DNA from: Bacillota bacterium
GTDB taxonomy: Bacteria; Bacillota; SHA-98; UBA4971
DNA length: 64,000 nucleotides
Direction of reading: 5' to 3'
Assembly (NCBI GenBank): GCA_050261335.1
Contig: JBLNDE010000064.1
Location: 74,165-138,164, forward strand
A model generated the notes under the pieces. The model was given only the letters and a program-made list of their open reading frames with translations. It searched no databases and was not told the origin of the DNA. The position numbers and the translations under genes are program-made. This document shows positions 1-51,953 of this stretch, piece by piece (the stretch's first letter is position 1; each line of letters begins with the position of its first letter).

Positions 1-105
1 GAGGTCTCTTCATTCATGCGCGCCCGGTGTGCCCGGGCGCCTCACCTCCTCGTTTCCCGGTGGTTTTCGAAACGACTCCTCGTGTCTGGATGGCGCCATA
101 CTCAG
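1..105. mobile_element. Partial copy of MITE-like dispersed repeat (3' terminal signature GGATGGCGCCATACTCAGG); supplies TGA stop of acoB
   Basis: Terminal motif tggatggcgccatactcagg at 88-107 matches ends of copies at 17100, 45765, 49475; degenerate palindromic core upstream (ggttttcgaaac). Confidence 0.5.
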
Positions 106-1073
106 GCGATCCTCCGCACCGCCTCCACTATCTCTTTCTTCCGAGGCACGACGCGCGCCTCCAGGGGCGGGCTGAACGGGATCGGAACGTCCATGGTCCC
201 GACCCGGACGACCGGTGCATCAAGGTAGTCGAACGCTTCTTCCGTGATCGTTGCAGCGATCTCCGCCCCGGCCCCGCCGCGACGGCAAGCCTCGTGGGCC
301 ACCACCACCTTCTTCGTTTTCTTCACGGACTGAACGACAGTATCGATGTCCATCGGGACGAGCGTCCTCAGGTCGACCACCTCCACCTCGATCCCGTCCC
401 TGGCGAGTTCGTCCGCGGCCTCCAGCGCCCTGTGGACCATGACCGAATATGTAACGCATGTCACGTCCCCGCCGGGCCTCTTGACATCGGCTTTGCCTAT
501 GGGAACGATGTACTCCTCCTCCGGCACGGGGCCTTTCATTGCGAACAGGGCCTTGTGCTCGAAGTAAAGCACGGGATCGTCGTCCCTGATGGCGGCCTTC
601 AGGAGCCCCTTCGCATCGTACGGCGTGGAGGGGATCACGACCTTCAACCCGGGGACATGAAGGAACCACGCCTCGAGGCTCTGCGAATGCTGGGCGGCGG
701 CGGACTTGATGACGCCGTCGGGCGCCCTCACCACCAGAGGCAGCCGGGCCTGTCCGCCGAACATATAGCGGATCTTCGCCGCCTGGTTCGCGATCTCATC
801 CATCGCACACGTGACGAAATCTGCAAAATGCATGTCCGCGACTGGTCTCATGCCGGTGAGCGCCGCCCCGACAGCCGACCCCACTATCGCTGTCTCGGAT
901 ATGGGCGTGTCCAATACCCTCTCATACCCGAACTCCTGAGGAAGCCCTTTGAACTGGCCGAATATGCCGCCCTGCCGGGCTATGTCCTCGCCGAGGACGA
1001 AAACGGTCGAATCGCGCCTCATCTCCTCAGCCATGGCCTCGAGCGTCGCCTGGGAGAACGTTATCTCTCTCAT
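102..1073 (-). CDS. acoB: Acetoin/pyruvate dehydrogenase E1 component beta subunit (transketolase-like C-terminal)
   Basis: Translation MREITFSQATLEAMAEEM...typical E1-beta; GGGGGAGGG RBS 8 nt upstream of ATG at 1073; ATGA overlap with upstream alpha-subunit stop (1070). Confidence 0.9.
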   Translation of the reverse strand: MREITFSQATLEAMAEEMRRDSTVFVLGEDIARQGGIFGQFKGLPQEFGYERVLDTPISETAIVGSAVGAALTGMRPVADMHFADFVTCAMDEIANQAAKIRYMFGGQARLPLVVRAPDGVIKSAAAQHSQSLEAWFLHVPGLKVVIPSTPYDAKGLLKAAIRDDDPVLYFEHKALFAMKGPVPEEEYIVPIGKADVKRPGGDVTCVTYSVMVHRALEAADELARDGIEVEVVDLRTLVPMDIDTVVQSVKKTKKVVVAHEACRRGGAGAEIAATITEEAFDYLDAPVVRVGTMDVPIPFSPPLEARVVPRKKEIVEAVRRIA

Positions 1074-2056
1074 ATCCCGCATCCCTCCCCCTGGGCACAT
1101 GACGCGTACAGGTCCGAGAAGGCATCATCGGGGTCTGGATAAGCGCTTTCCTCTGCGAAGCTGACCGCCTCGAGGATCTCCTGGTGCGCCGCAGACCTGA
1201 TCCCCTCCATCTCCGCATCGCCCAGAACTCCGTCGGCGCGAAGCCGGTCCTCGAAGCGCAAGATCGGGCATTTCTCCCTCCATCCCTCGACCTCGGAACG
1301 ATCACGATACCTCTCGGGGTCGCCGACGAAGTGGCCTTTGATGCGGTAGGTTTTCGCCTCGAGGAGAGTCGGCCCGCCGCCCTCACGCGCCCGCGCTATC
1401 GCCTCGCGGGCTGCTTCGTACACTGCAAGCGCGTCGTTTCCGTCAACGGTCACCCCGGGGATGCCGTATCCCACAGCCCGGTCAGCGACATCTTTCACCG
1501 ACACAGAGTAGGTCGAAGGAGTCGTGGAGGCGTACTGGTTGTGCTCGCAGACGAACACGCACGGGAGATCGAACACGCTGGCCATGTTCAGGGCCTCGTG
1601 GAAAGTGCCGCGGTTCGAGGCCCCATCGCCGAAGAAGCACACGGCCACCTGGGCGGAGCGCCTCATCTTCGCGGAAAGCGCCGCGCCGACAGCGATGTTG
1701 AATCCTCCCCCCACCACCCCGTTGGCGCCCAGCATGCCCACGGAGAAATCGGCTATGTGCATGCTTCCGCCTTTGCCCTTGCAGTACCCGGTGCTCTTTC
1801 CGAGGATCTCCGCCATCATGCGCCGCGGGCTCGCCCCCTTTGCGATGCAGTGCCCGTGACCCCTGTGGGTGCTCACGATGTAGTCGGATCGGTCGAGCGA
1901 CGCGCATACGCCCGAGGCGACACCCTCTTCGCCGATGTACAGATGGACGAAACCGGGGATCTTGCCGGCGAGGAACAGCTCCTCCACCTTCTCCTCGAAC
2001 GCTCTGATTCTGACCATCGTGGTATAGATATGGATGAGTGTGTCGCGGTCTGGCAA
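1070..2056 (-). CDS. acoA: Acetoin/pyruvate dehydrogenase E1 component alpha subunit (TPP-dependent)
   Basis: LPDRDTLIHIYTTMVRIRAFEEKVEELFLAGKIPGFVHLYIGEEG... aligns to E1-alpha N-terminus; probable TTG start at ~2056 preceded by AGGGGGGAG; ORF-track start 2113 leaves no room for UTR after sigma54 promoter. Confidence 0.85.
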   Translation of the reverse strand: MPDRDTLIHIYTTMVRIRAFEEKVEELFLAGKIPGFVHLYIGEEGVASGVCASLDRSDYIVSTHRGHGHCIAKGASPRRMMAEILGKSTGYCKGKGGSMHIADFSVGMLGANGVVGGGFNIAVGAALSAKMRRSAQVAVCFFGDGASNRGTFHEALNMASVFDLPCVFVCEHNQYASTTPSTYSVSVKDVADRAVGYGIPGVTVDGNDALAVYEAAREAIARAREGGGPTLLEAKTYRIKGHFVGDPERYRDRSEVEGWREKCPILRFEDRLRADGVLGDAEMEGIRSAAHQEILEAVSFAEESAYPDPDDAFSDLYASCAQGEGCGI

Positions 2057-4387: not shown

Positions 4388-4507
4388 GTAGAAACCGCCT
4401 CCGCGACCAGATATGGCGGCACAGTCTGCGCGCCGTTTCCTGACGGTGCCGGGTTGGCGGCGCTTGCTGGGGCGGGGTGCCTGCAATTTGGCTGGACCGG
4501 GCTAAGT

Positions 4508-4825
4508 GTGGGTTCAGAAATCACCGCCACTTTTCCAGGGTTGCCGGTGTTGCTCTCCGGGGACGGCGCGCTTGCGGCGCGCCTCGTTCGAATTTGGCGC
4601 TTAAGGCTAGCCAAATTCTCGACGCCCCGCCCTAGCAAGCACCGGCAACCCGGAATCTTCTCCCAAACCGGCATGGATTTCTGAACTCACCCTTAGCCTT
4701 GAGCGCCGAATCCGAACGCATCTCACCGCACGCGCCGTCCCCGGCGTGCAACGCCGCCAACCCTGCACAGTGCTTGCGCGCTGAAAAGCAGCGCGAACCT
4801 GTGAAGATTCACCGGGAGTCACTGG
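4508..4825. mobile_element. Composite/nested MITE-like elements: one bounded by TIRs GGGTTCAGAAATC...GATTTCTGAACTC (4508-4699) plus inverted partial copy (4700-4825)
   Basis: Core ccagggttgccggtgttgc...cgcctcgttcgaatttggcgc...ctagccaaattc...caccggcaaccc identical in architecture to the copy at 16905-17122; 4700-4825 is the reverse complement of the 5' half of the 43438 copy. Confidence 0.75.
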
Positions 4826-5697: not shown

Positions 5698-5868
5698 GCA
5701 GCCGGAATCCTCTCCCGAACCGGCATGGACTTGTCAACTCATGCCCGATACTGCTATGCTACATATGGAACCCATGCCAGTGCCTTCACTTGAGCCGACG
5801 GCTGACGCGCGTCACGGGTCCCTCCGGAACCGTTCCCCACGTCACGCCGGAGAACCGTCGAGTGATGT

Positions 5869-6160
5869 AAGTACGACGCCATAAGTCTGCGCCACCTCTC
5901 CTGACGGTGTTGGGGCTCGCGGTGCTTGCCAGGGCGGGTGCCTGGAATTCGGCGCAGTGAGGGTGCAGGAATACTCTCGACTTTTGGGAGGGGTTGCCGG
6001 TGATTGCACGAGGGGTGCCAAAACCCGGCCACCGGCCAGACGGGGCGGATTTTGGCGAAGCGCGCCCCGCCTGGGGCGCCGTCCCCGGAGGGCAACACCG
6101 GCAGCCCTGGACAGGACTCACCCGCTGAAAAGTAGCGCGGACTTGTGGCGACCTACCTGG
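5869..6160. mobile_element. MITE-like dispersed repeat, variant B, inverted orientation; overlaps 3' end of HAD hydrolase gene
   Basis: Reverse complement of the 45545-45784 copy (gggttgccggtgattgcacgaggggtg...ggattttggcgaagcgcgcc...ctgaaaagtagcgcggacttgtggcgacctacctgg). Confidence 0.85.
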
Positions 6161-6888
6161 AATCGCCCGCGCTCCATGAAGTGCACGAGGTCCTCGAAGG
6201 TGCCCCGGAAGTCGGGGTGGTTCTGCGCCCGGCCGCGATCGAGGAGGAAATCCTCGACGAGGTACGTTTTCATCCCGAGCGTGCCCGCGATGATATCCTC
6301 CTCGACATCGTTGCCCACCATGAAGCATTCCTCGGGCGTGCGACCGATGAGCGCGAGGACTTCCTCATAGTACTCGCGGTTGGGCTTGCAGAAGTGCATG
6401 GTTTCGTAAGATGTCACAAGCCTGTACGACAGCCCGTCGAGGCCTCCCCATCTCATGCGCTCCTCGATGGCGGTGAGAGGGAACACGGGGTTCGTGGCTA
6501 TGACCACGTCAATCCCCCTGGAGATAAGGCCTTCGAGCATGCGCCGGGCGTCAGGGTGCGGACGTATCCCCAGTCGATCCTTGATGAGCCGGAAATCATG
6601 GCGATAGAAATCGTCGAACACCGGCATGAGCACGTCACCGGGTATCCCCACCGCTGGGAAGAAGTCCTCGGCGAACACCTCTCGGTTGGTCTTGCGGGGA
6701 TCCAGGTTTCTCACCATCACGTCGGTGGACTTCATGACCTGTCTTGCGAGGCGGCCGGGCTCGACCATGCTCGCCAGCCTCGCGCCGAGGGCGGCCAGGT
6801 ACTCCCTGATGAACGCGTCGAAATCGTAGTGAACCAGAGTGCCGTCCAGATCGAACAGTATCGCCCTTATCACGTTATCACTCCTCAT
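6118..6888 (-). CDS. HAD-superfamily hydrolase (DxDGT motif: ILFDLDGTL); last 13 codons + stop are encoded by the MITE
   Basis: VIRAILFDLDGTLVHYDF... HAD motif I; start at ATG 6888 (or GTG 6873 after AGGAG); C-terminal ...FQVGRHKSALLFSG* lies within repeat 6118-6160. Confidence 0.8.
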   Translation of the reverse strand: MRSDNVIRAILFDLDGTLVHYDFDAFIREYLAALGARLASMVEPGRLARQVMKSTDVMVRNLDPRKTNREVFAEDFFPAVGIPGDVLMPVFDDFYRHDFRLIKDRLGIRPHPDARRMLEGLISRGIDVVIATNPVFPLTAIEERMRWGGLDGLSYRLVTSYETMHFCKPNREYYEEVLALIGRTPEECFMVGNDVEEDIIAGTLGMKTYLVEDFLLDRGRAQNHPDFRGTFEDLVHFMERGRFQVGRHKSALLFSG

Positions 6889-6950
6889 GACCTCGCAGCA
6901 GCCCCGACCGGGCCCGTGGCGACCGCGACATGGCAAGGAGGGTTAGAGGC

Positions 6951-7229
6951 ATGCCAAGGTTCTATTCCGAGCCGATAGAGGTCGTGTTCAGGACACGTCC
7001 AGGTCCGCCGACGACATTCGTCTGGCGCGGCGAGGAGCACCGGATCGCTGCGGTTGAGGCCATGTGGCAAGATCACGGCATCGGCACGGTGAACCCTAAG
7101 TACGCCAGCTGGCGCCTGCGCCGCCATCGCAACTATTACAGGGTCCGGACGGATGACGGGAGAGTCTTCGAGTTCTACCTGGACCGGGGCGGCGGCAGAC
7201 GCAGGTGGGTACTCTATCGCGAACTCTAG
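6951..7229 (+). CDS. Small conserved-looking hypothetical protein (93 aa)
   Basis: GGAGGG RBS then ATG (MPRFYSEPIEVVFRTRPG...RWVLYREL); divergent from HAD gene; no recognisable domain by eye. Confidence 0.45.
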   Translation: MPRFYSEPIEVVFRTRPGPPTTFVWRGEEHRIAAVEAMWQDHGIGTVNPKYASWRLRRHRNYYRVRTDDGRVFEFYLDRGGGRRRWVLYREL

Positions 7230-7231
7230 GT

Positions 7232-7400
7232 GTGAGTTCAGAAATCCGTACCGGTTCGGGAGGAGCCCCCTGGCTGCCCATGCTCGCACCACCGGGCGCT
7301 CTCGATTTGGCAAGCCGGAATGCCAAATCCAGCGAGGCTCATCGCAGGCGTGCCATCCCGGGAGCGCAACAGCCGCAACCCCTGGAACAACGGCGGCGAA
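7232..7400. mobile_element. MITE-like dispersed repeat, variant C (gggcgctctcgatttggcaag...gaatgccaaatc...caacccctgg), with GAGTTCAGAAATC terminal motif
   Basis: Near-identical core to copy at 47850-47958; shares the GAGTTCAGAAATC TIR with the 4508 element. Confidence 0.7.
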
Positions 7401-7463
7401 TCCCGCGGCCCGCCTCCCCGCATGGCGTCCACACAGCCCGGCGCGGCCCGCGATTCACGATGC

Positions 7464-16904: not shown

Positions 16905-17122
16905 ATGCTGAAGTCTAGGTAGATCGCCACAAGTTCGCGCTGCTTTTCAGCGGGTTAGTCCTGTCCAGGGTTGCCGGTGTTGCCCTCCGGGGACGGCGCG
17001 CTTGCCACGCGCCTCGTTCGAATTTGGCGCGCGGGCTAGCCAAATTCTCGACGCCCCGTCGTGCAACCACCGGCAACCCCAACACCGTCAGGGAAGATGG
17101 CGCAAACTTATGGCGCCATACT
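16905..17122. mobile_element. MITE-like dispersed repeat, variant A (reference copy)
   Basis: ctaggtagatcgccacaagttcgcgctgcttttcagcgg…ccagggttgccggtgttgcc…cgcctcgttcgaatttggcgc…ctagccaaattc…caccggcaacccc…gatggcgcaaacttatggcgccatact; TIR AGATCGCCACAAGTT / AACTTATGGCGCCAT. Confidence 0.85.
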
Positions 17123-17135
17123 TGAATGCTGCGGC

Positions 17136-28822: not shown

Positions 28823-29881
28823 ATGGAGGAACTTCGTGACCTCCGACGCAGGATACGTAGCGTCCGTGGAACACAGCAGATCACCCGCGCCATGTCCCTT
28901 GTGGCCTCCACGCGGCTGCGCCGGATCGAGAGGCTCGTGGATCCCGCTCGCACATATGCCGGGGCTCTCCGGCGCATCGTCGTCGACATCGCAGCGCGGA
29001 CCCCGGCGTGGGCTCACCCGCTTCTCAGACCAGCGGAAGTCGCGGCTCCGGCTTACCTCGTCATAACCTCCGACAGAGGCCTTGCCGGCGGCTACAACGC
29101 GGAGATCCTCCGGCTTGCGATGGCCCACGTCTCCAGAGCGGCGACCGGCAGTCGTGGCCGCATCATGGTGATGGCGGCGGGCAGGAAGGGGCGGGATTTC
29201 TTCCGCAGGCGAGGTCTTCAGCCTGCCGAGGAGTACGTCCGTCTCCCTGATACGCCCGATGAGAGGCTGGCCAGGCGAATGGCCGAGGACCTGCTCGCCC
29301 TGTACTTCGACGGCCGGATAGACTCCCTCCACCTCGTGTTCGGAAGGTTCATGTCCCGGGGCTTGTACAGGCCGGACATCCTACAGTTGCTGCCCGTCGA
29401 AAAGGCTGAGCAGGCCGGCTACCAGGATCGAAGGCAGGGCAAGGGCAAGGGCGAGGACGAGGACTGGGATGGAGGCGAGAACGGGGACGACGGCCAGGAC
29501 TCGTACCGCGTCCGCGAAGCGCACCAGGACCGGAACCCCGGCGGGGAAAGGGACAGCGGCCGGGAGGATGGCGACGGCCGCGAAAGCCACGCCCGCGCCG
29601 ACGAAGACCGGGGCGATTTCGATCTGCCGCTCACGTATGAGCCCTCTCCGGAATCCGTCCTCGACAGGCTTTTCCCCCACTACCTCGTGTCAGTCGTGTA
29701 CGCAGCCCTCGTGGAGGCGAAGGCGAGCGAACTTGCTGCGCGGACCATCGCCATGGATTCGGCGACGGACAACGCCGGTGAGCTTATGGAGAGGTTGACG
29801 CTCACATACAACCGGGCCAGGCAGGCCGAGATCACGCAGGAGATCTCGGAGATCGCCACCGGCGCCGAAAGCCTCCGCTAA
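28823..29881 (+). CDS. atpG: F0F1 ATP synthase subunit gamma with ~65-aa acidic low-complexity insertion (GKGKGEDEDWDGGENGDDGQD…EDGDGRESHARADEDRGD)
   Basis: 352 aa versus ~285 typical; conserved N- and C-terminal gamma helices (…ITQEISEIATGAESL). Confidence 0.9.
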   Translation: MEELRDLRRRIRSVRGTQQITRAMSLVASTRLRRIERLVDPARTYAGALRRIVVDIAARTPAWAHPLLRPAEVAAPAYLVITSDRGLAGGYNAEILRLAMAHVSRAATGSRGRIMVMAAGRKGRDFFRRRGLQPAEEYVRLPDTPDERLARRMAEDLLALYFDGRIDSLHLVFGRFMSRGLYRPDILQLLPVEKAEQAGYQDRRQGKGKGEDEDWDGGENGDDGQDSYRVREAHQDRNPGGERDSGREDGDGRESHARADEDRGDFDLPLTYEPSPESVLDRLFPHYLVSVVYAALVEAKASELAARTIAMDSATDNAGELMERLTLTYNRARQAEITQEISEIATGAESLR

Positions 29882-29883
29882 GT

Positions 29884-30083
29884 GGGGGCGCAGAAATGCT
29901 CCCGACTCCTGGAAGGGGTTGCCGGTGCTTGCACGAGGGGTGTCAAAGTCCGGCCACTTCCCCGACGGGCCGGAGTCTGGCGAAGCGCGCCCCGCGTGGG
30001 ACGCCGTCCCCGAGTGTAACGCCGGCAACCCTGGGTAGGACGCGCGCTGAAAAACAGCGCGGATTCGTGGCGACGTACTTACT
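29884..30083. mobile_element. MITE-like dispersed repeat, variant B, inserted between atpG and atpD
   Basis: gggttgccggtgcttgcacgaggggtgtcaaagtccggcc…ggcgaagcgcgcc…cgccggcaaccc…gcgcgctgaaaaacagcgcggattcgtggcgacgtactt. Confidence 0.85.
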
Positions 30084-43281: not shown

Positions 43282-43437
43282 AGCAGGACCTCCGTGCCGC
43301 CTTGGGAACTTCTACGCGGCCGCGCGAATTCCTCCAGGAATCAGACGGGGCACACAACGGCATGCTCCACCCGCCCGCTGCCGGGCGCCAGGCACCTGGG
43401 GCGGAGATAGAGGCAGGAACAGAGACAGGGGGCAGAC

Positions 43438-43634
43438 CCAGGTAGATCGCCACAAGTTCCCGCTACTTTCGTGCGGGTGAGCCCTTGCCAGGGCTGCCGG
43501 TGCTGCCCTCTGGGGGCGGCGCGTGCGGTGAGATGCGTTCGAATCTGGCGCTTAAGGCTAGCCAAATTCCGGGCGCCCCGCCCTGGTAAGCACCGCGAGC
43601 CCCAGCACCGTCAGGGAAGATGGCGCAAACTTAC
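43438..43634. mobile_element. MITE-like dispersed repeat, variant A
   Basis: cccaggtagatcgccacaagttcccgctactttcgtgcgg…ccagggctgccggtgctgcc…gcgttcgaatctggcgcttaaggctagccaaattc…gcaccgcgagcccc…gatggcgcaaacttacggcgccatgct. Confidence 0.85.
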
Positions 43635-43758
43635 GGCGCCATGCTTGGACGAAGACGAAGGTGAAGATGAACATGAAGGCTGAGCCGGAGGCGAAGGCGG
43701 AGGCGGCGACGTGCGAAAAGGGCCCACGGCCGCGCCGCTCGTCCTCCGCGTAGACGGT

Positions 43759-45393
43759 CTATTCGTGAGGCGGAAGCGTGTTCTGAACCACCGCATCCGC
43801 GAGGTTCACGGCATGATCGGCCATGCGCTCGAGGTTGTCCACGACCTCGACATAGATGACCCCGGAGGCCGGCGAGCACCTGCCCTGGTTGAGCCTTCTG
43901 AGGTGGCTCGTCCGCAGGACCTCTTCGAGCTCGTCGATGTGCTTCTCCTTCTCCCAGACGTCCTGGGCGAGGGCGGGGTCGTTCCTCTCCAGGGCCTGGA
44001 CGGCGTCGGATATGACCTCGTCCACCCGGGCGAAGAGGTCAGCAAGCTCGGATTTGGCCTCGTCCGAGAATTCGAGACCCTGCTCCACCCTGTCGATGGC
44101 GAACCCGGATATGTTCACGGCATGGTCGCCGATGCGCTCTATGTCGTTCACCACGTGCAGCATGCCGGCGAGCCTGGTCGACTGGGGCTGCGTGAGCACA
44201 CCCTGGGCCATGAGAGTCGACAGGTACAGGATTATCTCCGCCTGGAGGTTGTCCACCAGGTCCTCACGAGCGTTTATGCTCTTGGACACCGCGCTCGGCT
44301 TCCCGGCAAGGAGCGCCTGCCCGGCGTCTTTCACCATCTCGCGCGCGATTCCGGACATCCTGACAAGCTCCTTCACCGCAAGTTGCAGGGCGATGGACGG
44401 GGTGGAGAGCATGCGTCTGTCGAGGTACTTCGGACCGTGCTCCATGATGACCTCCTGCCCGGGGTACACCGCGGTCGCGATACGGGCCAGCAGGCCGGCC
44501 ATGGGCAGCCACACGAGGGTGTTGAGCACATTGAACGAGGTGTGGGCGTTCGCTATGAGGCGCTCGATGTCACCCGACGGGGTGACCGCGTGAACGAATA
44601 CCTTGAAGAGAGGAAGCAGCGTGAGAAACGTGATGGTGCCAAATACGTTGAAAAGCACGTGAGCGAGAGCCGTCCTGCGCGCCGAGAGGCTCGCGCCGAT
44701 GCTTGCGAGGACCGCGGTGATGCACGTCCCGATGTTGTCGCCGAAGAGGACGGGTATCGCCGCATCGAATCCGACGAGGCCCTGCGAGGCCGCGGCCATG
44801 AGGAGGCCGATGGTCGCGCTGGAACTCTGGATGGTGACGGTCATCGCGACACCCGCAAGGACCCCAAGGAGAGGGTATTTCCCGAAGCCGGCTATCCATT
44901 GCACGAACGCGGGGTTGTCACGAAGAGGCCTCATAGTGTCTGTCATCACGGTCATGCCGAGGAACAGGAGGCCGAACCCGAGGATCACCTGGCCCAGGTA
45001 CTTGTGGATCTTCTTCCTCGAAAAGAAGGTGATGATGAAGCCCAGGCCCACGGCAGGAAGAGCGAGATCCGCAAGGTCGAACGCAATGAGCTGCGCCGTC
45101 ATGGTGGTGCCTATGTTGGCCCCCATGACCACACCAACCGCCTGCTTCAGCGTCATGAGGCCTGCGTTCACGAAGCTGACAAGCATGACCGTGGTGGCAC
45201 TGGAACTCTGGATCACAGCCGTGACGGCGGCGCCCACGATCACCCCCATCCACGTCCTGGCGGTGAGCACCTCAAGGATTCGGCGCATCCTGTCGCCGGC
45301 CGCCTTCTGCAGACCGTCGCCCATTTGCATCATGCCGTAGATGAAGAGCCCCAGGCCCCCGAGAAGCCCGCACGCAAGGGAGACTGTCACCAC
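43759..45393 (-). CDS. Na/Pi-cotransporter II-related protein with C-terminal PhoU-like domains
   Basis: Duplicated QSSSAT motifs in membrane part; two PhoU-type helical repeats C-terminal. Confidence 0.85.
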   Translation of the reverse strand: MVTVSLACGLLGGLGLFIYGMMQMGDGLQKAAGDRMRRILEVLTARTWMGVIVGAAVTAVIQSSSATTVMLVSFVNAGLMTLKQAVGVVMGANIGTTMTAQLIAFDLADLALPAVGLGFIITFFSRKKIHKYLGQVILGFGLLFLGMTVMTDTMRPLRDNPAFVQWIAGFGKYPLLGVLAGVAMTVTIQSSSATIGLLMAAASQGLVGFDAAIPVLFGDNIGTCITAVLASIGASLSARRTALAHVLFNVFGTITFLTLLPLFKVFVHAVTPSGDIERLIANAHTSFNVLNTLVWLPMAGLLARIATAVYPGQEVIMEHGPKYLDRRMLSTPSIALQLAVKELVRMSGIAREMVKDAGQALLAGKPSAVSKSINAREDLVDNLQAEIILYLSTLMAQGVLTQPQSTRLAGMLHVVNDIERIGDHAVNISGFAIDRVEQGLEFSDEAKSELADLFARVDEVISDAVQALERNDPALAQDVWEKEKHIDELEEVLRTSHLRRLNQGRCSPASGVIYVEVVDNLERMADHAVNLADAVVQNTLPPHE

Positions 45394-45544
45394 GCCACCT
45401 CCAGACCGCTTGGGTCAGATTCACGCACTATCGCCAGTCCATGCACCTGCACATCAGGTCCGAAAGCCCCGCCGTGCAAGGGCCGCCAACCGGGAATCCG
45501 CCGGTAGTAAGGCCGCGCCAGCCCGCGAGGCCACACTCATCTCT

Positions 45545-45784
45545 CCAGGTAGATCGCCACAAGTTCGCGCTGCTTTTCAGCCAAGTGAGGGTGCATTGGT
45601 CCCCGTCCATTTTCCAGTAGTTGCCGGGTTGCCGGTGTTGCACTCGGGGACGGCGCCCCAGGCGGCGCGCGCTTCGCCAAAATCCAGCCCATCGCGCCAG
45701 TGGCCGGATTTTGACACCCCTCGTGCAATCACCGGCAACCCCGACGCCGTCAGGGAAGATGGCGCAGACTCATGGCGCCATACT
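45545..45784. mobile_element. MITE-like dispersed repeat, variant B (reference copy); overlaps last 4 codons + stop of uppP
   Basis: ctccaggtagatcgccacaagttcgcgctgcttttcagcc…gggttgccggtgttgcactcgggg…gcgcgcttcgccaaaatcc…ccggattttgacacccctcgtgcaatcaccggcaacc…gatggcgcagactcatggcgccatact. Confidence 0.85.
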
Positions 45785-46615
45785 TAGCAGCGCCCACGCT
45801 ACGACCGATACGCCGACGACCCACGTGTAGACCGCGAATACGATGAACCTCCGGCGTCTCAAGGCTGAGAGCACGAGGTGGATCGCCACGTACCCCGAAA
45901 CGACGCTGGCGAGCGCGCCCGCAAGAAAGGGCGCTGCAAATCCCATCGCGAGGCCCGTCCTGACGAGATCCGGGAACTCGAGTAGGCTCGCCCCGAGGAT
46001 CACCGGTATTGACAGCAGGAACGAGAACCTCGCAGCGTCATCGCGCCGCAGCCCGAAGAACAGCCCGGTGCTTATCGTCGCACCGGAGCGCGAGAACCCC
46101 GGGGCAACCGCGAGACCCTGTGCAACGCCCACGCAGAATGCACCCAGGGTTCCAAGCCTGCCCAGAGGCACCCGCCCCGAGCCGGCCCGGTCCGCAAACC
46201 ACAGCACAAGCCCGGTCGCGACGAGGAAGACCCCCACCGCGAGTTTCGAGGCGAAGAGACCGCGGACGACGGGCTCGAGCGCAAGCCCCATGAGCGCCGT
46301 CGGCACGCTGGCCACGACGATGAGTACAACCGTCCTGCGCGCGTCGTCACGGGAAACAGCCTTGCGCAGGCTTGTCCCCCCAGCGACATCCCGGACGATA
46401 TCGACCGCGGCGACCACGAGACGCACCACATCCCTCCGGAAGACGACGATAACGGCTGCGACCGTTCCCAGGTGCACCAGGATGTCGAACGACAGAAGCG
46501 CCTCCGGGGCGTTGAGGATCTCCCGTACTATGACGAGATGGCCCGAACTCGACACGGGCAGGAACTCGGTGAGCCCCTGTACCATCCCCAGGACCACGGC
46601 CTTCACGACGTCCAT
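45770..46615 (-). CDS. uppP: Undecaprenyl-diphosphate phosphatase
   Basis: …LTEFLPVSSSGHL… and …SRSGATISTGL… BacA/UppP motifs; start MDVVKAVV with GAGGGGGG RBS. Confidence 0.9.
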   Translation of the reverse strand: MDVVKAVVLGMVQGLTEFLPVSSSGHLVIVREILNAPEALLSFDILVHLGTVAAVIVVFRRDVVRLVVAAVDIVRDVAGGTSLRKAVSRDDARRTVVLIVVASVPTALMGLALEPVVRGLFASKLAVGVFLVATGLVLWFADRAGSGRVPLGRLGTLGAFCVGVAQGLAVAPGFSRSGATISTGLFFGLRRDDAARFSFLLSIPVILGASLLEFPDLVRTGLAMGFAAPFLAGALASVVSGYVAIHLVLSALRRRRFIVFAVYTWVVGVSVVAWALLSMAP

Positions 46616-47556
46616 GTGCGTCCCCCCCTCACGATCTCCACGAACCTGCGGTGCCAGGGTAGCACGACGACGATGGATAACATGTTGAAGAGGGTGTGAG
46701 CGTTCGCGATGCCGTGCCCCGGGTCGGGCGGCGAGACGGCTTCCACGAGCTGAACGAACGCCCTGAAAACGGGGAGCACCAAGACGACTCCGGCGACGTT
46801 GAACACGAGGTGCAGTAGCGCGGCCCGTCTCGCGGTGCGCGACGCCCCGACGCTCGCTATGAGCGTCGTCACGCACGTGCCGACGTTGCTGCCGAGAGCG
46901 ACCGCCACTGCGGACCCCAGGTCCATGAGGCCCTGCCGCGCCAACCCGATGAGCGCAACCGTCACCACGCTCGAACTCTGGATGACCCCGGTGAAAGCCA
47001 CGCCCGCCACCACACCGAGCGCCGGCACCTGCCCCAGCACCACCATCGCTTCAACGAGCCACGGCGCACGTGCGAGCCACACCATGGCCGACGAGGTGAC
47101 ACCCACGCCCCACAGGATGCATCCAAGGCCCGTCACCGCGATTCCCAAGTCGCGGCGGTGACGCCGCCTGGCCGCCAGGTACAGCGCAAGCCCCGCGCAG
47201 ATGGCAGGAATCCCGAGCGACTCCGCCCGGAACGAGACCACCTGCGCTGTCACACAGGTTCCGAGGTTTGCCCCCATTATCACGCCAAAAGCCCGGTACA
47301 GATCGAGAACACCCGAGTCGACCAGACCTACCACCATGACCGTTACCGCGCTGGAACTCTGCAGAGCCGCGGTCACCACGGCGCCCGTCACGACCGCCGC
47401 AAATGGTGTGCGGGTGAGCCGCCTGAGGGCGCCCTCCGCATGCCTGCCGGCTGCCCTGCCTAGTCCGGCACGCAGCAGACGGATTCCCGCAATAAAGAGG
47501 CCGATCCCCGCAACAAGCCGACAGAGCGAGGCAGCCACGGCGCATATCCTCCACAC
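46603..47556 (-). CDS. Na/Pi-cotransporter family protein (short form, no PhoU domain); start uncertain
   Basis: Two QSSS(A/V)(V/T)T repeats; N-terminus aligns with paralog 43759-45393 from ~VWRICAV (GTG 47556); ORF could extend to 47712. Confidence 0.7.
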   Translation of the reverse strand: MWRICAVAASLCRLVAGIGLFIAGIRLLRAGLGRAAGRHAEGALRRLTRTPFAAVVTGAVVTAALQSSSAVTVMVVGLVDSGVLDLYRAFGVIMGANLGTCVTAQVVSFRAESLGIPAICAGLALYLAARRRHRRDLGIAVTGLGCILWGVGVTSSAMVWLARAPWLVEAMVVLGQVPALGVVAGVAFTGVIQSSSVVTVALIGLARQGLMDLGSAVAVALGSNVGTCVTTLIASVGASRTARRAALLHLVFNVAGVVLVLPVFRAFVQLVEAVSPPDPGHGIANAHTLFNMLSIVVVLPWHRRFVEIVRGGRTWTS

Positions 47557-47799
47557 GCGAAGATCCGCCGCCAAGGCGCGTCGCTCCCAATATATGTCCT
47601 GCCAGCCCGACTTATTATAACACAGTGGGAAGAGGAACGGAAAGCCCCTCCCTGGCCCGACTCCCTGCTGAACTGCAGCGCCGTGGCGCCGTGTGGGTCG
47701 TAAGCATGCCATCCCGGGCAGGCGCTACCTCAAGCCCGTGGGCATGCAGCAGCGGTCCTCGACGATAGCCTGTGGTCGTCACGAAGTGTGACTTCGCAG

Positions 47800-47960
47800 A
47801 CCTCCGCCGGGTTGGGAGAATCTTGCGGGTCCCCGGTGTCTGCACGACGGGCGCTCTCGATTTGGCGAGATTGAATGCCAAAGCTGGCGACGCGTGCCGT
47901 CCCCGGAGTGCGGCACTGGCAACCCCTGGCAAAGTGGCGGTGAGTTCCGGGCCCGCACTT
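47800..47960. mobile_element. MITE-like dispersed repeat, variant C
   Basis: gggcgctctcgatttggcgagattgaatgccaaagc…gcgtgccgtccccggagtgcggcactggcaacccctgg ~ copy at 7232-7400. Confidence 0.7.
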
Positions 47961-48019
47961 GGTGCCGCTACTGAAGAATGAAAGGAAGACGAGTATCAGG
48001 GGGTTTTCTGAGCCGACAC

Positions 48020-49359: not shown

Positions 49360-49497
49360 GGACGTCACGGGTTCCAACACCGGTAACCCACCAGATGTTG
49401 GCAAACTGGGAGGAACTAACGAACCCTTGCTTAGCAAGCACCGGCAACCCCGACGCCATCAGGGAAGATGGCGCAAACCTGTGGCGCCATACTCAGG
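49360..49497. mobile_element. Short MITE-like copy (variant A, internally deleted); its 3' terminal motif supplies the TGA stop of the ABC-2 permease gene
   Basis: …cttgcttagcaagcaccggcaaccccgacgccatcagggaagatggcgcaaacctgtggcgccatactcagg. Confidence 0.7.
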
Positions 49498-51196
49498 CCT
49501 CAAGGCAGTTCCACAGTCGGTCCGCGACGGCGCCGAGGAGCGCCACCAGCGCGGCGAGGAGAGCCGCGAGCACGCCTCCGACCCCTGCGACCACTCCCCA
49601 CGCGGGAAGCCCGAGATCGATGAGGAAGTTCACGGCCAGGCCCAGCGCGGCAAGCACCGCGACACCCATCAGCATCCCCGCGACCACGTTGAGGTTGGAC
49701 TTCACAGCCTTCTGCTGGTCAGTCCAGTTCAGCATGGGACGCCACATATCGAAGAGCACTCCGCACAGGTTGAGCATGAACGACGACATGACCCCGAAGA
49801 CGACCCCCACAGCCACGCTTGCAAGGGGCAACCTGGCCACGTGCCCGAGCACCGCGATCCCGGGGATCGCGCCCAGGGCGACCATAATCTCCGCGCCCGC
49901 AGCCTTGCCGAGGGCGATAGTCTTCGCAGACGCCGGAAAGCTCCTCAAGATCCAGATGTTCCTCCGGCCCTCGCGCGAGAAGGCCGTGAACGGGATGGAC
50001 GACATCGCCGCGAGAACGAAGAAGTACGCCGCGATGACGAGGGCGCCGATGGCATCAAACGCCGGCGCGGCCAGCAACGCGTCCCACAGCCGCGCCATCT
50101 CGGGGTTGCCCCTCATGAGGAACATGGCCACGAACATCACCGGGAACATCACAAACCCGGTGAACCCGTTCAGCACGAACACAGGGGTCCTCGTGAAAAG
50201 CTTCATCTCCGTGATCGCAAGCGACGCAATGGGGGAGCGTGACACATACCCGGCAGCCCTGGCCATTCCGGCCCTGCGCGCCGACGCTTTCCTCGCACCC
50301 GCCTCGAAGCCGCTGACCACGCCCTGGTAGAACACCCGGTCGCCGATGGCCAGGAGAACTGCAAACCCCAGCACGCCCGCCACGGTGAAGACCCCCAGGT
50401 TCCAGATCCCCCGCCAGGTGCCTGCGAGCGCGAGGGCCTTCGTCGCCCAGATGCTCGGCGGGAAACGGGCGCCAGCTATGTCCACGAGGCTGTTGGCAGT
50501 CGCGAGCATCTTCGACAGGAACTCGGCCTCCTCCCCGACGCCGGGCACCTTCGTCTGTACGAGGAACTGGAAGACCACAATCACGGCCACGAAGAGAAAG
50601 CCGCCTATCATCGCCAGGGTGTCCTTGCGCCTCGACAGCCCCGCAACCCTCATCAGGAGAATCGCGGGAATGGCGGCCAGTACGAGCGGCACCACAGGCA
50701 GCGCCAGGAAGACCAGGATGCTGGAGAGCACGTACGGCACGGCGCTCACGTCAGCACGGACCCCATAGGCGATGATCACCGGGAGAACGAACACCGCGAG
50801 GCCGACATACTCGCTGGCGAGGATGACTGCAAACTTGCCCGCGAGCACTTCGACCGGCCGCAGGGGAAGCGGGATCAGGATGGCAAGGTCGTTCGAGAAG
50901 TAGAACACCGCGATGACCAGCACGAACCCGAGGATCATCACGAGCACCTGGGAGAGGAGAATGCCCAGGGTCAGAGTCACGGCCTCCTGCCCAATGGCGG
51001 CGGCTGTAGAATAGTAGTACGATGCCGCCGTGTAGATGCCGACGGCAAGCGAGGCGGCGGCACCGCCCACACCCAGCACTATGAGGATGGGCTCCCAGAG
51101 GCGCTGGCGCTTCTTGAGATAGTAGTAGCGTGAGTGAGATATGGCAAAGTTCATGTTGAGCTGCGCGAGTATGAGCGAGAGGACCCGCCTTGCCAT
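49493..51196 (-). CDS. ABC-2-type exporter permease (polytopic, ~12 TM)
   Basis: Highly hydrophobic 560+ aa; ATGA-type overlap with upstream ABC ATPase stop. Confidence 0.75.
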   Translation of the reverse strand: MARRVLSLILAQLNMNFAISHSRYYYLKKRQRLWEPILIVLGVGGAAASLAVGIYTAASYYYSTAAAIGQEAVTLTLGILLSQVLVMILGFVLVIAVFYFSNDLAILIPLPLRPVEVLAGKFAVILASEYVGLAVFVLPVIIAYGVRADVSAVPYVLSSILVFLALPVVPLVLAAIPAILLMRVAGLSRRKDTLAMIGGFLFVAVIVVFQFLVQTKVPGVGEEAEFLSKMLATANSLVDIAGARFPPSIWATKALALAGTWRGIWNLGVFTVAGVLGFAVLLAIGDRVFYQGVVSGFEAGARKASARRAGMARAAGYVSRSPIASLAITEMKLFTRTPVFVLNGFTGFVMFPVMFVAMFLMRGNPEMARLWDALLAAPAFDAIGALVIAAYFFVLAAMSSIPFTAFSREGRRNIWILRSFPASAKTIALGKAAGAEIMVALGAIPGIAVLGHVARLPLASVAVGVVFGVMSSFMLNLCGVLFDMWRPMLNWTDQQKAVKSNLNVVAGMLMGVAVLAALGLAVNFLIDLGLPAWGVVAGVGGVLAALLAALVALLGAVADRLWNCLEA

Positions 51197-51197
51197 C

Positions 51198-51953
51198 TCA
51201 CTTCGCCTCCCCTGCCTCGGTGAGTTCGAGGAATATGTCCTCCAGCGTCTCGTCAGTCTGCTTGCGCCGCTCACGAAGCTCCTCCACGCTGCCGCATGCG
51301 ATGAGGCGTCCCATGTTGATGATGCCCACCCGGTCGCAGAGCCTCTCAGCCACCTCCAGGATGTGCGTGGAGAAGAAGACGGTATGCCCCTTGTCGCAGT
51401 GGCTCCTCATCATGTCCTTGAAAAGGCGTGACGCCCGGGGGTCGAGACCCACCATGGGCTCGTCCAGGATGAACACCCGGGGATCGTGCAGGAGCGCGCC
51501 GGTAAGCGCGAGCTTCTGCTTCATTCCGTGGGAATAGCTCTGAATGATGTCCGCGACCGCCGACTCGAGCTCGAACATCTCCAGGAGTTCGCCGATACGG
51601 CGCCTTCTCTCCTCGCGGGAAACGCCGAAGATGTCGGCCACGAGATTGAGATACTCGATGCCCGTGAGCCTCTCGTACAAGTCGGGGTTGTCGGGGACAT
51701 ATCCTATGTCGGCCTTGGCGGCCACCGGGTCGCGGGCGACGTCGTGACCGTTTACAAGGATAGTGCCCCTGTCGGCCCTGAGAAGCCCCACCACCATCTT
51801 GATGGTGGTGGTCTTGCCTGCGCCGTTGGGCCCGAGGAAGCCGAATATCTCGCCGGCACGAACCTCGAGGGAGAGGTTGTCCACCGCCGGCCTCGTTCCG
51901 CCTCGATAAGTCTTGGAGACGCCCTCCAGTCTCAGCAAAGAAGCCCCACTCAT
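51198..51953 (-). CDS. ABC transporter ATP-binding protein
   Basis: GPNGAGKTT Walker A, LSGGMKQKLAL-like signature (YSHGMKQKLAL), ILDEP Walker B. Confidence 0.9.
   Translation of the reverse strand: MSGASLLRLEGVSKTYRGGTRPAVDNLSLEVRAGEIFGFLGPNGAGKTTTIKMVVGLLRADRGTILVNGHDVARDPVAAKADIGYVPDNPDLYERLTGIEYLNLVADIFGVSREERRRRIGELLEMFELESAVADIIQSYSHGMKQKLALTGALLHDPRVFILDEPMVGLDPRASRLFKDMMRSHCDKGHTVFFSTHILEVAERLCDRVGIINMGRLIACGSVEELRERRKQTDETLEDIFLELTEAGEAK

Follow-up and report, generated by a model that had tools for sequence, protein, structure and literature searches.

What are the short, palindromic, G+C-rich repeats that are scattered between the genes of an uncultured bacterium, how did they come to lie there, and why do so many of them adjoin stop codons? 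These questions are raised by a stretch of 64,000 nucleotides of contig JBLNDE010000064.1 (assembly GCA_050261335.1, labelled Bacillota bacterium; positions 74,165 to 138,164), which is referred to below as the window, and by one repeat within it, referred to as the focal copy. [quoted passage not shown] The present analysis upholds this proposal; the family is present at essentially the places described, far above chance. The elements are very probably (probability about 0.8) non-autonomous DNA transposons, i.e., MITEs, of one superfamily that inserts at the TA of the tetranucleotide CTAG.

The reality of the family is clearly indicated by several searches. The core stem GGGTTGCCGGTG, with no more than one mismatch, occurs 14 times in the window against 0.8 expected, a count reached by none of 100 shuffles, and the left end motif occurs four times against zero expected. 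A repeat search recovered direct and inverted relationships among all the places listed previously. A hidden Markov model (HMM) trained on 116 cores found nine cores; altogether, the window contains nine elements with a recognisable core and three fragments (Table 1), and a BLAST search with six reference elements as queries assigned 1.9 kb (3.0%) of the window to the family. The coordinates given in the sequence-only reading were close, but the ends needed amendment. The focal copy is real, but spans 16915-17125 instead of 16905-17122; the copy placed at 1-105 is family DNA, but is merely an end fragment of about 20 nt (88-105); the copy placed at 49360-49497 is actually a truncated nested composite (about 49368-49496). 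The nesting of the supposed nested pair was correctly noted, and consists of an outer, reversed T1 element (4407-4816) split by a T2-type element (4502-4696). The solo arm fragment at 5702-5741 is an addition to the list.

Alignment by program gave sharp common ends, both for the 37–41 full-length T1 copies and for 96 full-length copies of five arm subfamilies. The true ends have the form C-TA-AGT(A/G)...(C/T)ACT-TA-G; conservation starts at the C (90 of 96 copies), stops at the G (89 of 96) and is at background level one base outside, and perfect CTA...TAG ends are found in 63 of the 96. The copies are about 195–245 bp long, have a G+C content of 62% and contain no transposase gene. The TIRs comprise 14–21 nt, depending on the subfamily, and always start with AGT(A/G); in the focal copy, 14 of 19 positions match when read directly, in agreement with the imperfect TIR proposed for it. 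The arms (about 40–50 nt) are variable, with at least six types recognised (T1, T1', T2, T3, T4 and T5), and the common core (about 115 nt) is of type A, B or C and folds as a long imperfect hairpin. The three core variants recognised earlier do exist in alignment A1, which comprises the cores collected through the stem search pattern, but the full range of arm and core combinations is larger, and related genomes have further arm variants. Folded as a whole, the element forms a long hairpin whose core contains a three-way junction (DNA −57.2 kcal/mol, z −4.7; RNA z −5.35). When a consensus RNA fold was computed for all cores, nothing but the outer stem was recovered. The near-invariance of this stem in A1 is an ascertainment artefact, because the stem served as the search pattern; in copies found via the T1 end, it shows ordinary variation. 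The core was also considered as an independent nested element, and this idea was rejected since cores never occur without family arms; the two exceptions, in Pirellulales MAGs (metagenome-assembled genomes), have an unrelated interior and are palindromes that arose by chance. In one frame, the focal copy reads open over 69 codons, which would give a low-complexity peptide of 69 aa, for which a protein database search found no homologue; the elements can seed spurious open reading frames (ORFs) where raw six-frame ORFs are read.

The target can be read from a comparison with related MAG loci (designated below by numbers of the L001 type), in which both empty and filled orthologous sites were found. 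The focal copy occupies a site that is empty in the MAG JAAYXB (L011), where it reads AAGTCTAGATGC; conversely, a T3 copy of JAAYXB (L011 4363-4561) corresponds to an empty site of the window, CCGCTACGCC. At the end of bacA, both the window and JASEJE carry a copy that four other relatives lack, and the empty site of L120, one of these four, retains CTAG at exactly that position (GCGCTCCTAGCGGGG). In the empty orthologous sites, the sequence is CTAG or CTAC. Core A has two CTAG sites, in the central loop GGCTAGCC and at CCCTAG/CAAGCACCGG, and copies nested within other copies are found at both; such insertions were found at two places in the window (4502-4696 and about 49368-49496) and in L040, L073 and L079. 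In the former place, the CTAG of the central loop of the outer element received the nested copy, which has TIRs of 21 nt and is 92.9% identical to the T2 reference; in the latter, a T3-type end stands at the second CTAG of a T1 copy (CCCTAG/CAAGCACCGG) and is followed by the T1 right arm. The left end, CTAA, and the right end, TTAG, are inverted and not direct repeats, and TA is the only compatible direct repeat, because a duplication of three or four bases would require CTAA to equal TTAG. We infer from this that TA is duplicated as an enzymatic step of insertion. The atpG–atpD junction is uninformative on the target, because every relative has element remnants there.

This choice of target would explain the placement of the elements. 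CTAG occurs 21 times in the window, against 213 occurrences expected from base composition and 50 expected from a Markov model, i.e., it is about tenfold under-represented by composition, and 6 of the 21 sites lie within elements. The tetranucleotides TTAA and CTAA are strongly depleted in the window too. As TAG is contained in CTAG, a TAG stop that follows a C offers a target, and many copies lie on stops; insertion into C/TAG gives C-TAA-GT, which is an in-frame stop again and leaves the gene intact, so that copies adjoin stop codons and can sit inside operons. In a test restricted to the 21 element ends that adjoin an ORF with a coding-type G+C content at third codon positions (GC3), the junction codon was a stop in 15 cases, while the other two frames accounted for three cases each. 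The closeness to stop codons pointed out earlier was, therefore, confirmed, but it is better accounted for by the TAG inside the CTAG target than by a terminator role. All the copies of the window are intergenic or overlap the 3' ends of genes only, as had been stated.

Individual genes illustrate this relationship. The stop codon of atpG (TAA, 29879-29881) is the insertion junction of the copy at 29878-30082; atpA, atpG and atpD were identified with Pfam. The stop codons of a transketolase-like gene, 102-1100(-), and of gene 49493-51274(-) are TGA codons at the junctions (102-104 and 49493-49495, respectively, both on the minus strand), and are junction codons that have since mutated. The composite element at 5867-6160 has the junction codon TAA on the left (5868-5870) and a mutated one, CAG, on the right, and gene 6118-6936(-) is extended into the element by 13 codons (6118-6161), whereas its orthologue in L046 still stops at TAA. 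In bacA, the insertion took place in a CTAG within the last codons, one frame off, and the terminal residues were replaced by a new tail, LSMAP followed by a stop (45770-45787). The MITEs can, thus, rewrite the 3' ends of genes, as in bacA and in the gene with 13 additional codons, and they sit in an essential operon, between atpG and atpD. A TA target within CTAG, combined with the strong depletion of CTAG, would funnel insertions onto TAG stops, which offers a simple and testable account of stop-hugging MITEs.

The elements would move in cut-and-paste fashion, using a transposase supplied in trans, and would insert at the TA of the rare CTAG with duplication of TA. An IS630-family DDE transposase appears to be the most likely driver, although the preference for it is modest; no transposase was found in the 858 kb sampled, so it is the target site alone that suggests this family. 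Members of the IS630 family duplicate the TA at which they insert (PMC2170065), and for IS630 itself TA within 5'-CTAG-3' is the preferred target (PMC2170065, citing Tenzen and Ohtsubo 1991). Evidence of the same kind underlies the attribution of RUP, a MITE of pneumococcus, to IS630-Spn1 (PMC2229807). The rarity of CTAG would leave as usable sites mostly intergenic sites, TAG stops preceded by C and the CTAGs in the core loops of the elements themselves. Self-nesting, followed by homologous deletion between repeated cores, would then shuffle arms and cores and produce the mosaic variants. Hybrids of this kind include the copy at 29878-30082, whose two ends have arms of different types (T1 and T3), and the composites at 5867-6160 and 45545-45787. 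The former composite consists, in plus-strand order, of a reversed right half of T1/core A, a T3-type arm, a reversed core B and a reversed T1 left arm. The latter, at bacA, has the structure T1 arm, core B, T1 arm in JASEJE, and in the window a T3 arm ending with CACTTGG has taken the place of the inner part of one T1 arm; the simplest path to this mosaic would be that a T3/core-B element inserted and that a deletion between the two cores, which were direct repeats, followed. Orthologous sites that are filled, empty or remodelled provide a natural record of the nesting and recombination that build mosaic repeats. It is also conceivable, if rather doubtful, that the core takes an active part, either as a CTAG landing pad that steers insertions or as a part read by an undescribed mobilising enzyme. 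A landing-pad core, presenting CTAG in exposed hairpin loops, would allow the family to target itself as a safe haven and to shuffle arms and cores; an enzyme reading the core would explain why divergent arms stand beside a constant core and a terminal AGTR; and a second MITE of 108 nt (see below), inserting at a fixed position of the terminal arms, would be consistent with a layered ecology in which one parasite lives on another.

A number of points weigh against the assignment to transposons inserting at TA under an IS630-type enzyme. The chromosomal empty sites are imperfect: one of them reads CTAC, and the right junction of the focal copy is mutated to TGA. With a palindromic target and AGT...ACT ends, a TA duplication is formally inseparable from the insertion of AAGT...ACTT at CT/AG without duplication, and 2-bp TA duplications have also been attributed to subgroups of the IS5 family. 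The cognate transposase with the same TIRs, the search for which had been suggested, was not found in 858 kb of sampled DNA: the IS630-type C-terminal motif SP[DE]xNPxE is absent from all six frames, although MAGs tend to lose IS copies, and a scan for TIR pairs at a spacing of 0.5–3.5 kb found only adjacent MITEs and no pair enclosing an ORF. A metagenome scan with the 19-nt end motif common to T1 and T5 returned MITEs only and no autonomous element, and the multi-copy ORFs of the loci, ten of which were scanned against Pfam, were ABC transporters, solute-binding proteins and Mo-dehydrogenases, with no transposase among them. The arms are so different that either one transposase recognising little beyond the terminal AGTR or several related transposases must be assumed. 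Finally, with a median identity of 85–91% between copies within a genome, much of the family is old and may no longer be mobile.

These points leave some room for an alternative considered unlikely, namely MITEs moved by another DDE family, e.g., by a subgroup of the IS5 family or a PIF/Harbinger-like enzyme rather than by IS630/Tc1-mariner. Some groups of the IS5 family use YTAR/CTAG-like targets and produce 2–4-bp duplications, and the family call made here depends on the target site only. A direct duplication of 3-bp TNA or 4-bp YTAR, however, does not fit the inverted CTAA/TTAG ends, and the preference for TA in CTAG is behaviour published for IS630. A much smaller chance is given to palindromes of the REP/BIME or REPIN kind, spread as single-stranded hairpins by a RAYT (HUH tyrosine transposase). 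The long hairpin of the complete element (DNA z −4.7; RNA z −5.35), the BIME-like mosaic organisation, the intergenic location and the presence of GTAG in the T1 and T5 ends (AAGTAG) would suit such a mechanism. The T2, T3 and T4 ends read AAGTGx, however, and lack GTAG; the units comprise about 200 bp and not 20–40 nt, have defined ends and show empty sites consistent with a TA/CTAG target; both orientations, noted already in the sequence-only reading, are equally common (33/27 for core A and 28/28 for core B); and no Y1 transposase was seen near the copies, as far as the ten Pfam-scanned multi-copy ORFs of related loci are concerned. Practically nothing except the high local density speaks for a duplication, or an assembly artefact, limited to this region; this explanation is refuted by the occurrence of the family on more than 60 contigs of at least eight independently assembled MAGs and in separate metagenomes, in copies with unrelated flanks. 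Two other candidates were tried and rejected, namely the rhizobial RIME/Sm-repeat (no match in PLSDB, and the matches fell in Bacillota MAGs) and IS200/IS605-derived palindromic elements (these have no TIRs, carry unlike subterminal hairpins at their two ends and insert in a strand-specific manner, with no duplication, 3' of a short motif that is fixed, whereas the TIRs are symmetric here and the orientations equally common).

Retention by the host for a function as structured RNAs or cis-regulatory elements (small RNAs, terminators or mRNA stabilisers) was suggested by folds that are stable and well below shuffled controls, by a central hairpin that cores A, B and C retain despite their differing sequences, and by the position of copies just 3' of stop codons. 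The placement of the elements does not agree with this. In a census of 137 cores in 776 kb, based on crude gene calls of our own, five cores lay inside called genes, 30 had no called gene on one side (locus edge) and 102 were flanked on both sides; the latter lay between tandem genes in 69 cases, convergent genes in 18 and divergent genes in 15, the intergenic background being 340, 42 and 45, respectively. The REP- or terminator-like placement after convergent genes, which the sequence-only reading had proposed, was not borne out by these figures, nor by the window, where all nine sites lie between co-directional genes. Relative to tandem genes, 27 elements had the same orientation and 42 the opposite one, which we read as no bias. 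No excess of promoter- or terminator-like sites was found at the elements compared with shuffles, and one copy lies inside the essential atpG–atpD junction. A single promoter-like match, TTGTCA with an 18-nt spacer and TATGCT (5731-5760), has its −35-like hexamer in the solo T2 arm. Rfam searches of the window gave nothing at the gathering threshold, and the only weak match of the focal copy had an E-value of 3.7. In the outer (P1) stem, 16 G-U and 13 A-C mismatches were counted, so neither RNA strand is favoured, and the P2 hairpin is absent from an abundant core subtype. The orthologous copies diverge at nearly the synonymous rate: element identity is 96.1% between the window and a same-species MAG, against 97.7–98.6% at third positions, and 91.0% between the window and JASEJE, against 89%. 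The atpG–atpD copy is reduced to 65 nt in JASEJE, a sister species, and is degenerate in JACIXY. Near-synonymous divergence, the lack of orientation bias and the lack of an Rfam match favour selfish DNA over an RNA element of the host, and a conserved host function is regarded as very improbable.

The reading of the elements as MITEs is accompanied by a wide distribution. The sequence-only reading had asked whether the copies might be confined to this region, which is not so: the family is found on more than 60 contigs of at least eight MAGs and on 16 metagenome contigs. A stem-pattern scan of one genome per species, the figures of which are lower bounds, found at least 93 blocks of 8 kb with the family, nearly all on more than 60 contigs of at least eight high-GC MAGs, which are labelled 'Bacillota bacterium' or mislabelled. 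The metagenome scan added 16 copies, all of them MITEs, from bioreactor-type samples. No match to the family was found among PLSDB plasmids, in a scan of viral contigs, or in the sequence collections and literature searched. The window is syntenic with two of the MAGs at about 84% nucleotide identity and shares 99% protein identity with GCA_050260545.1, and the nearest cultured relatives have only about 44% AtpG identity, which indicates a deep uncultured lineage. The organism labels of some MAGs from one project conflict, being 'Bacteroidota', 'Betaproteobacteria' and 'Clostridia' (JBLNCJ01, L110; JBLNCC01, L013, L023, L063 and L087; JBLNDA01, L014, L026, L042 and L120). The Na/Pi-cotransporter of JBLNCJ01 is 99% identical to that of the window and that of JBLNDA01 90% identical, the AtpG of JBLNCC01 is only 63% identical, and the MITEs of all three are the same as those of the 'Bacillota' MAGs; at least some of these labels look wrong.

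Pairwise identities within a genome have medians of 85–91% and maxima of 97–98.6%. Non-orthologous copies of different species are up to 96–97% identical (96.7% for the focal copy and a copy in JASEJE L007), while neutral orthologous sites are only about 90% identical, corresponding to about 10% divergence; the family has, therefore, moved after the species split. It is an old family, with post-split spread either from slowly changing master copies or by interspecies transfer. The subfamilies are spread unevenly, T1 being found mainly in JASEJE and T3 mainly in JAAYXB and JACIXY. The T1 copy between the Na/Pi-cotransporter gene and ftsK (43438-43648) has a 91% identical orthologue in JASEJE (L117), and four other relatives are without it.

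Table 1. Copies and fragments of the MITE family in the window, and copies of a second MITE in related loci (L numbers)
Feature	Position	Strand	Basis
T1 right-arm terminal fragment (GGATGGCGCCATACTCAG)	88-105	.	sequence, gene call, Pfam
Outer T1-type element, reversed, with degenerate ends CCAGAT...CACCGGG	4407-4816	-	sequence, repeat search, BLAST
Nested T2-type element, core A: C-TA-AGTGTGGGTTCAGAAATC...GATTTCTGAACTCACCCT-TA-G	4502-4696	+	repeat search, HMM, BLAST
Solo T2 right-arm fragment, without core	5702-5741	+	repeat search, BLAST
Composite element	5867-6160	-	sequence, HMM, gene call, BLAST
Variant-C element, T2-like arms, degenerate right end	7226-7418	-	core 7273-7381 (HMM); 73% identical to T2 (BLAST)
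Focal copy, full T1 with core A	16915-17125	+	sequence, alignment, fold
Hybrid of T3 arm, core B and T1 left arm at the atpG–atpD junction	29878-30082	-	sequence, HMM, Pfam
T1, core A, decayed left stem, between Na/Pi-cotransporter gene and ftsK	43438-43648	+	alignment, orthologue comparison
T1 frame with core B and T3 left arm, at bacA 3' end	45545-45787	+	sequence, Pfam, orthologue comparison
Variant-C element, T2-like arms, core partly deleted	47782-47962	-	repeat search, HMM, BLAST
Truncated composite, T3-type end in T1 copy	49368-49496	+	sequence, gene call, BLAST
Second MITE	L002 6862-6969
Second MITE	L013 3807-3914
Second MITE	L017 4542-4649
Second MITE	L032 2143-2250
Second MITE	L046 6975-7083
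Second MITE	L054 2876-2983
Second MITE	L067 3651-3758
Second MITE	L018 436-545
Second MITE	L018 4895-5003

Several further observations were made in the window and the related loci. A second, unrelated MITE of about 108 nt, with the TIR GAGACTGTTGA...TCAACAGTCTC, occurs in related loci and has no copy in the window. In at least seven cases it lies within a terminal arm of the first family, about 8–14 nt from the tip, flanked by a 6-bp duplication that varies with the arm type (GTGCAT, GTGCAG, GTTCAG, CGCCAT, CTGCAC); since the duplicated sequence varies, its target looks positional and not sequence-defined. An ORF of 484 aa with a YADD motif (L100 425-1879, metagenome contig JGI12104J13512_1013798) lies in a T1 element directly after GGGTTGCCGGTGTTG; from its sequence, it looks like a putative group II intron reverse transcriptase. 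The contig JASEJE010000008.1 (L117 1-110) starts inside an element, at the junction of bacA and the Na/Pi-cotransporter gene, which suggests that the repeats break short-read assemblies. A direct repeat of 52 nt is found in four copies with a spacing of 381 nt in the region 44817-47400 of the window, in the Na/Pi-cotransporter gene 43759-45393(-) and, by position, in the ORF 46603-47712(-), which corresponds to a gene with a Na_Pi_cotrans domain in relatives; these repeats look like an internal domain duplication in paralogous genes, unrelated to the MITEs. Between the Na/Pi-cotransporter gene and ftsK (43282-43437 and 43649-43758), the window and JASEJE have, apart from the MITE, about 250 nt more intergenic DNA than four relatives do, and the additional DNA includes a tract of CCTTCGCCTCC-type repeats.

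The local density in the window is about one copy per 6 kb, or about 160 per Mb. The highest density reported in a census of 183,232 prokaryotic genomes was 123 MITEs per Mb (PMC11602168); should the window be representative, this clade of uncultured, high-GC Bacillota would rank with the known prokaryotes richest in MITEs. The mechanism is an ordinary one, of a known kind of selfish DNA; the testable features are the stop-restoring insertion into CTAG and the self-nesting that shuffles modules.

A comparison with known systems places the elements among MITEs that use TA as a target. IS630 of Shigella sonnei and ISY100 share with them the TA target duplicated on insertion and TIRs of about 20–24 bp, but are autonomous elements of 1–1.3 kb with an HTH-DDE transposase, none of which was found here with these ends. 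The Stowaway MITEs of plants, mobilised by Tc1/mariner transposases, combine TA duplication, short TIRs and hairpin potential with a very high copy number and nesting; they differ in being eukaryotic and A+T-rich and in having another TIR consensus. REP and REPIN elements are not known to have a defined target duplication and are mobilised by Y1 HUH transposases; the REP units are imperfect palindromes of 20–40 nt with a conserved GTAG, while the elements described here are about 200 bp long, have TIRs and insert at a CTAG/TA target. The likeness to REP/BIME and REPIN lies in G+C-rich extragenic palindromes, a mosaic structure and a high copy number (PMC2817692). The Correia (NEMIS) elements of Neisseria are similar in their size (100–155 bp), TIRs, terminal TA and long stem-loop (PMC2229807), and further likenesses are their co-transcription with neighbouring genes and the size variants produced by an internal block (PMC2229807). 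Compared by description, they differ in being A+T-rich, in having an IHF site and promoter elements and in having no reported preference for CTAG or stop codons, and the hosts are unrelated. The RUP element of pneumococcus is another such system; like the elements of the window, it is non-coding and intergenic, has TIRs, inserts at TA, tends to insert into other mobile elements, and is present in about 100 copies per genome (PMC2229807). Compared by description only, RUP comprises 107 bp, resides in a low-GC host and has TIRs matching a known resident IS, whereas the elements described here have no identified parent IS, comprise about 200 bp with 62% G+C, occur in many combinations of arms and cores, and nest within one another.

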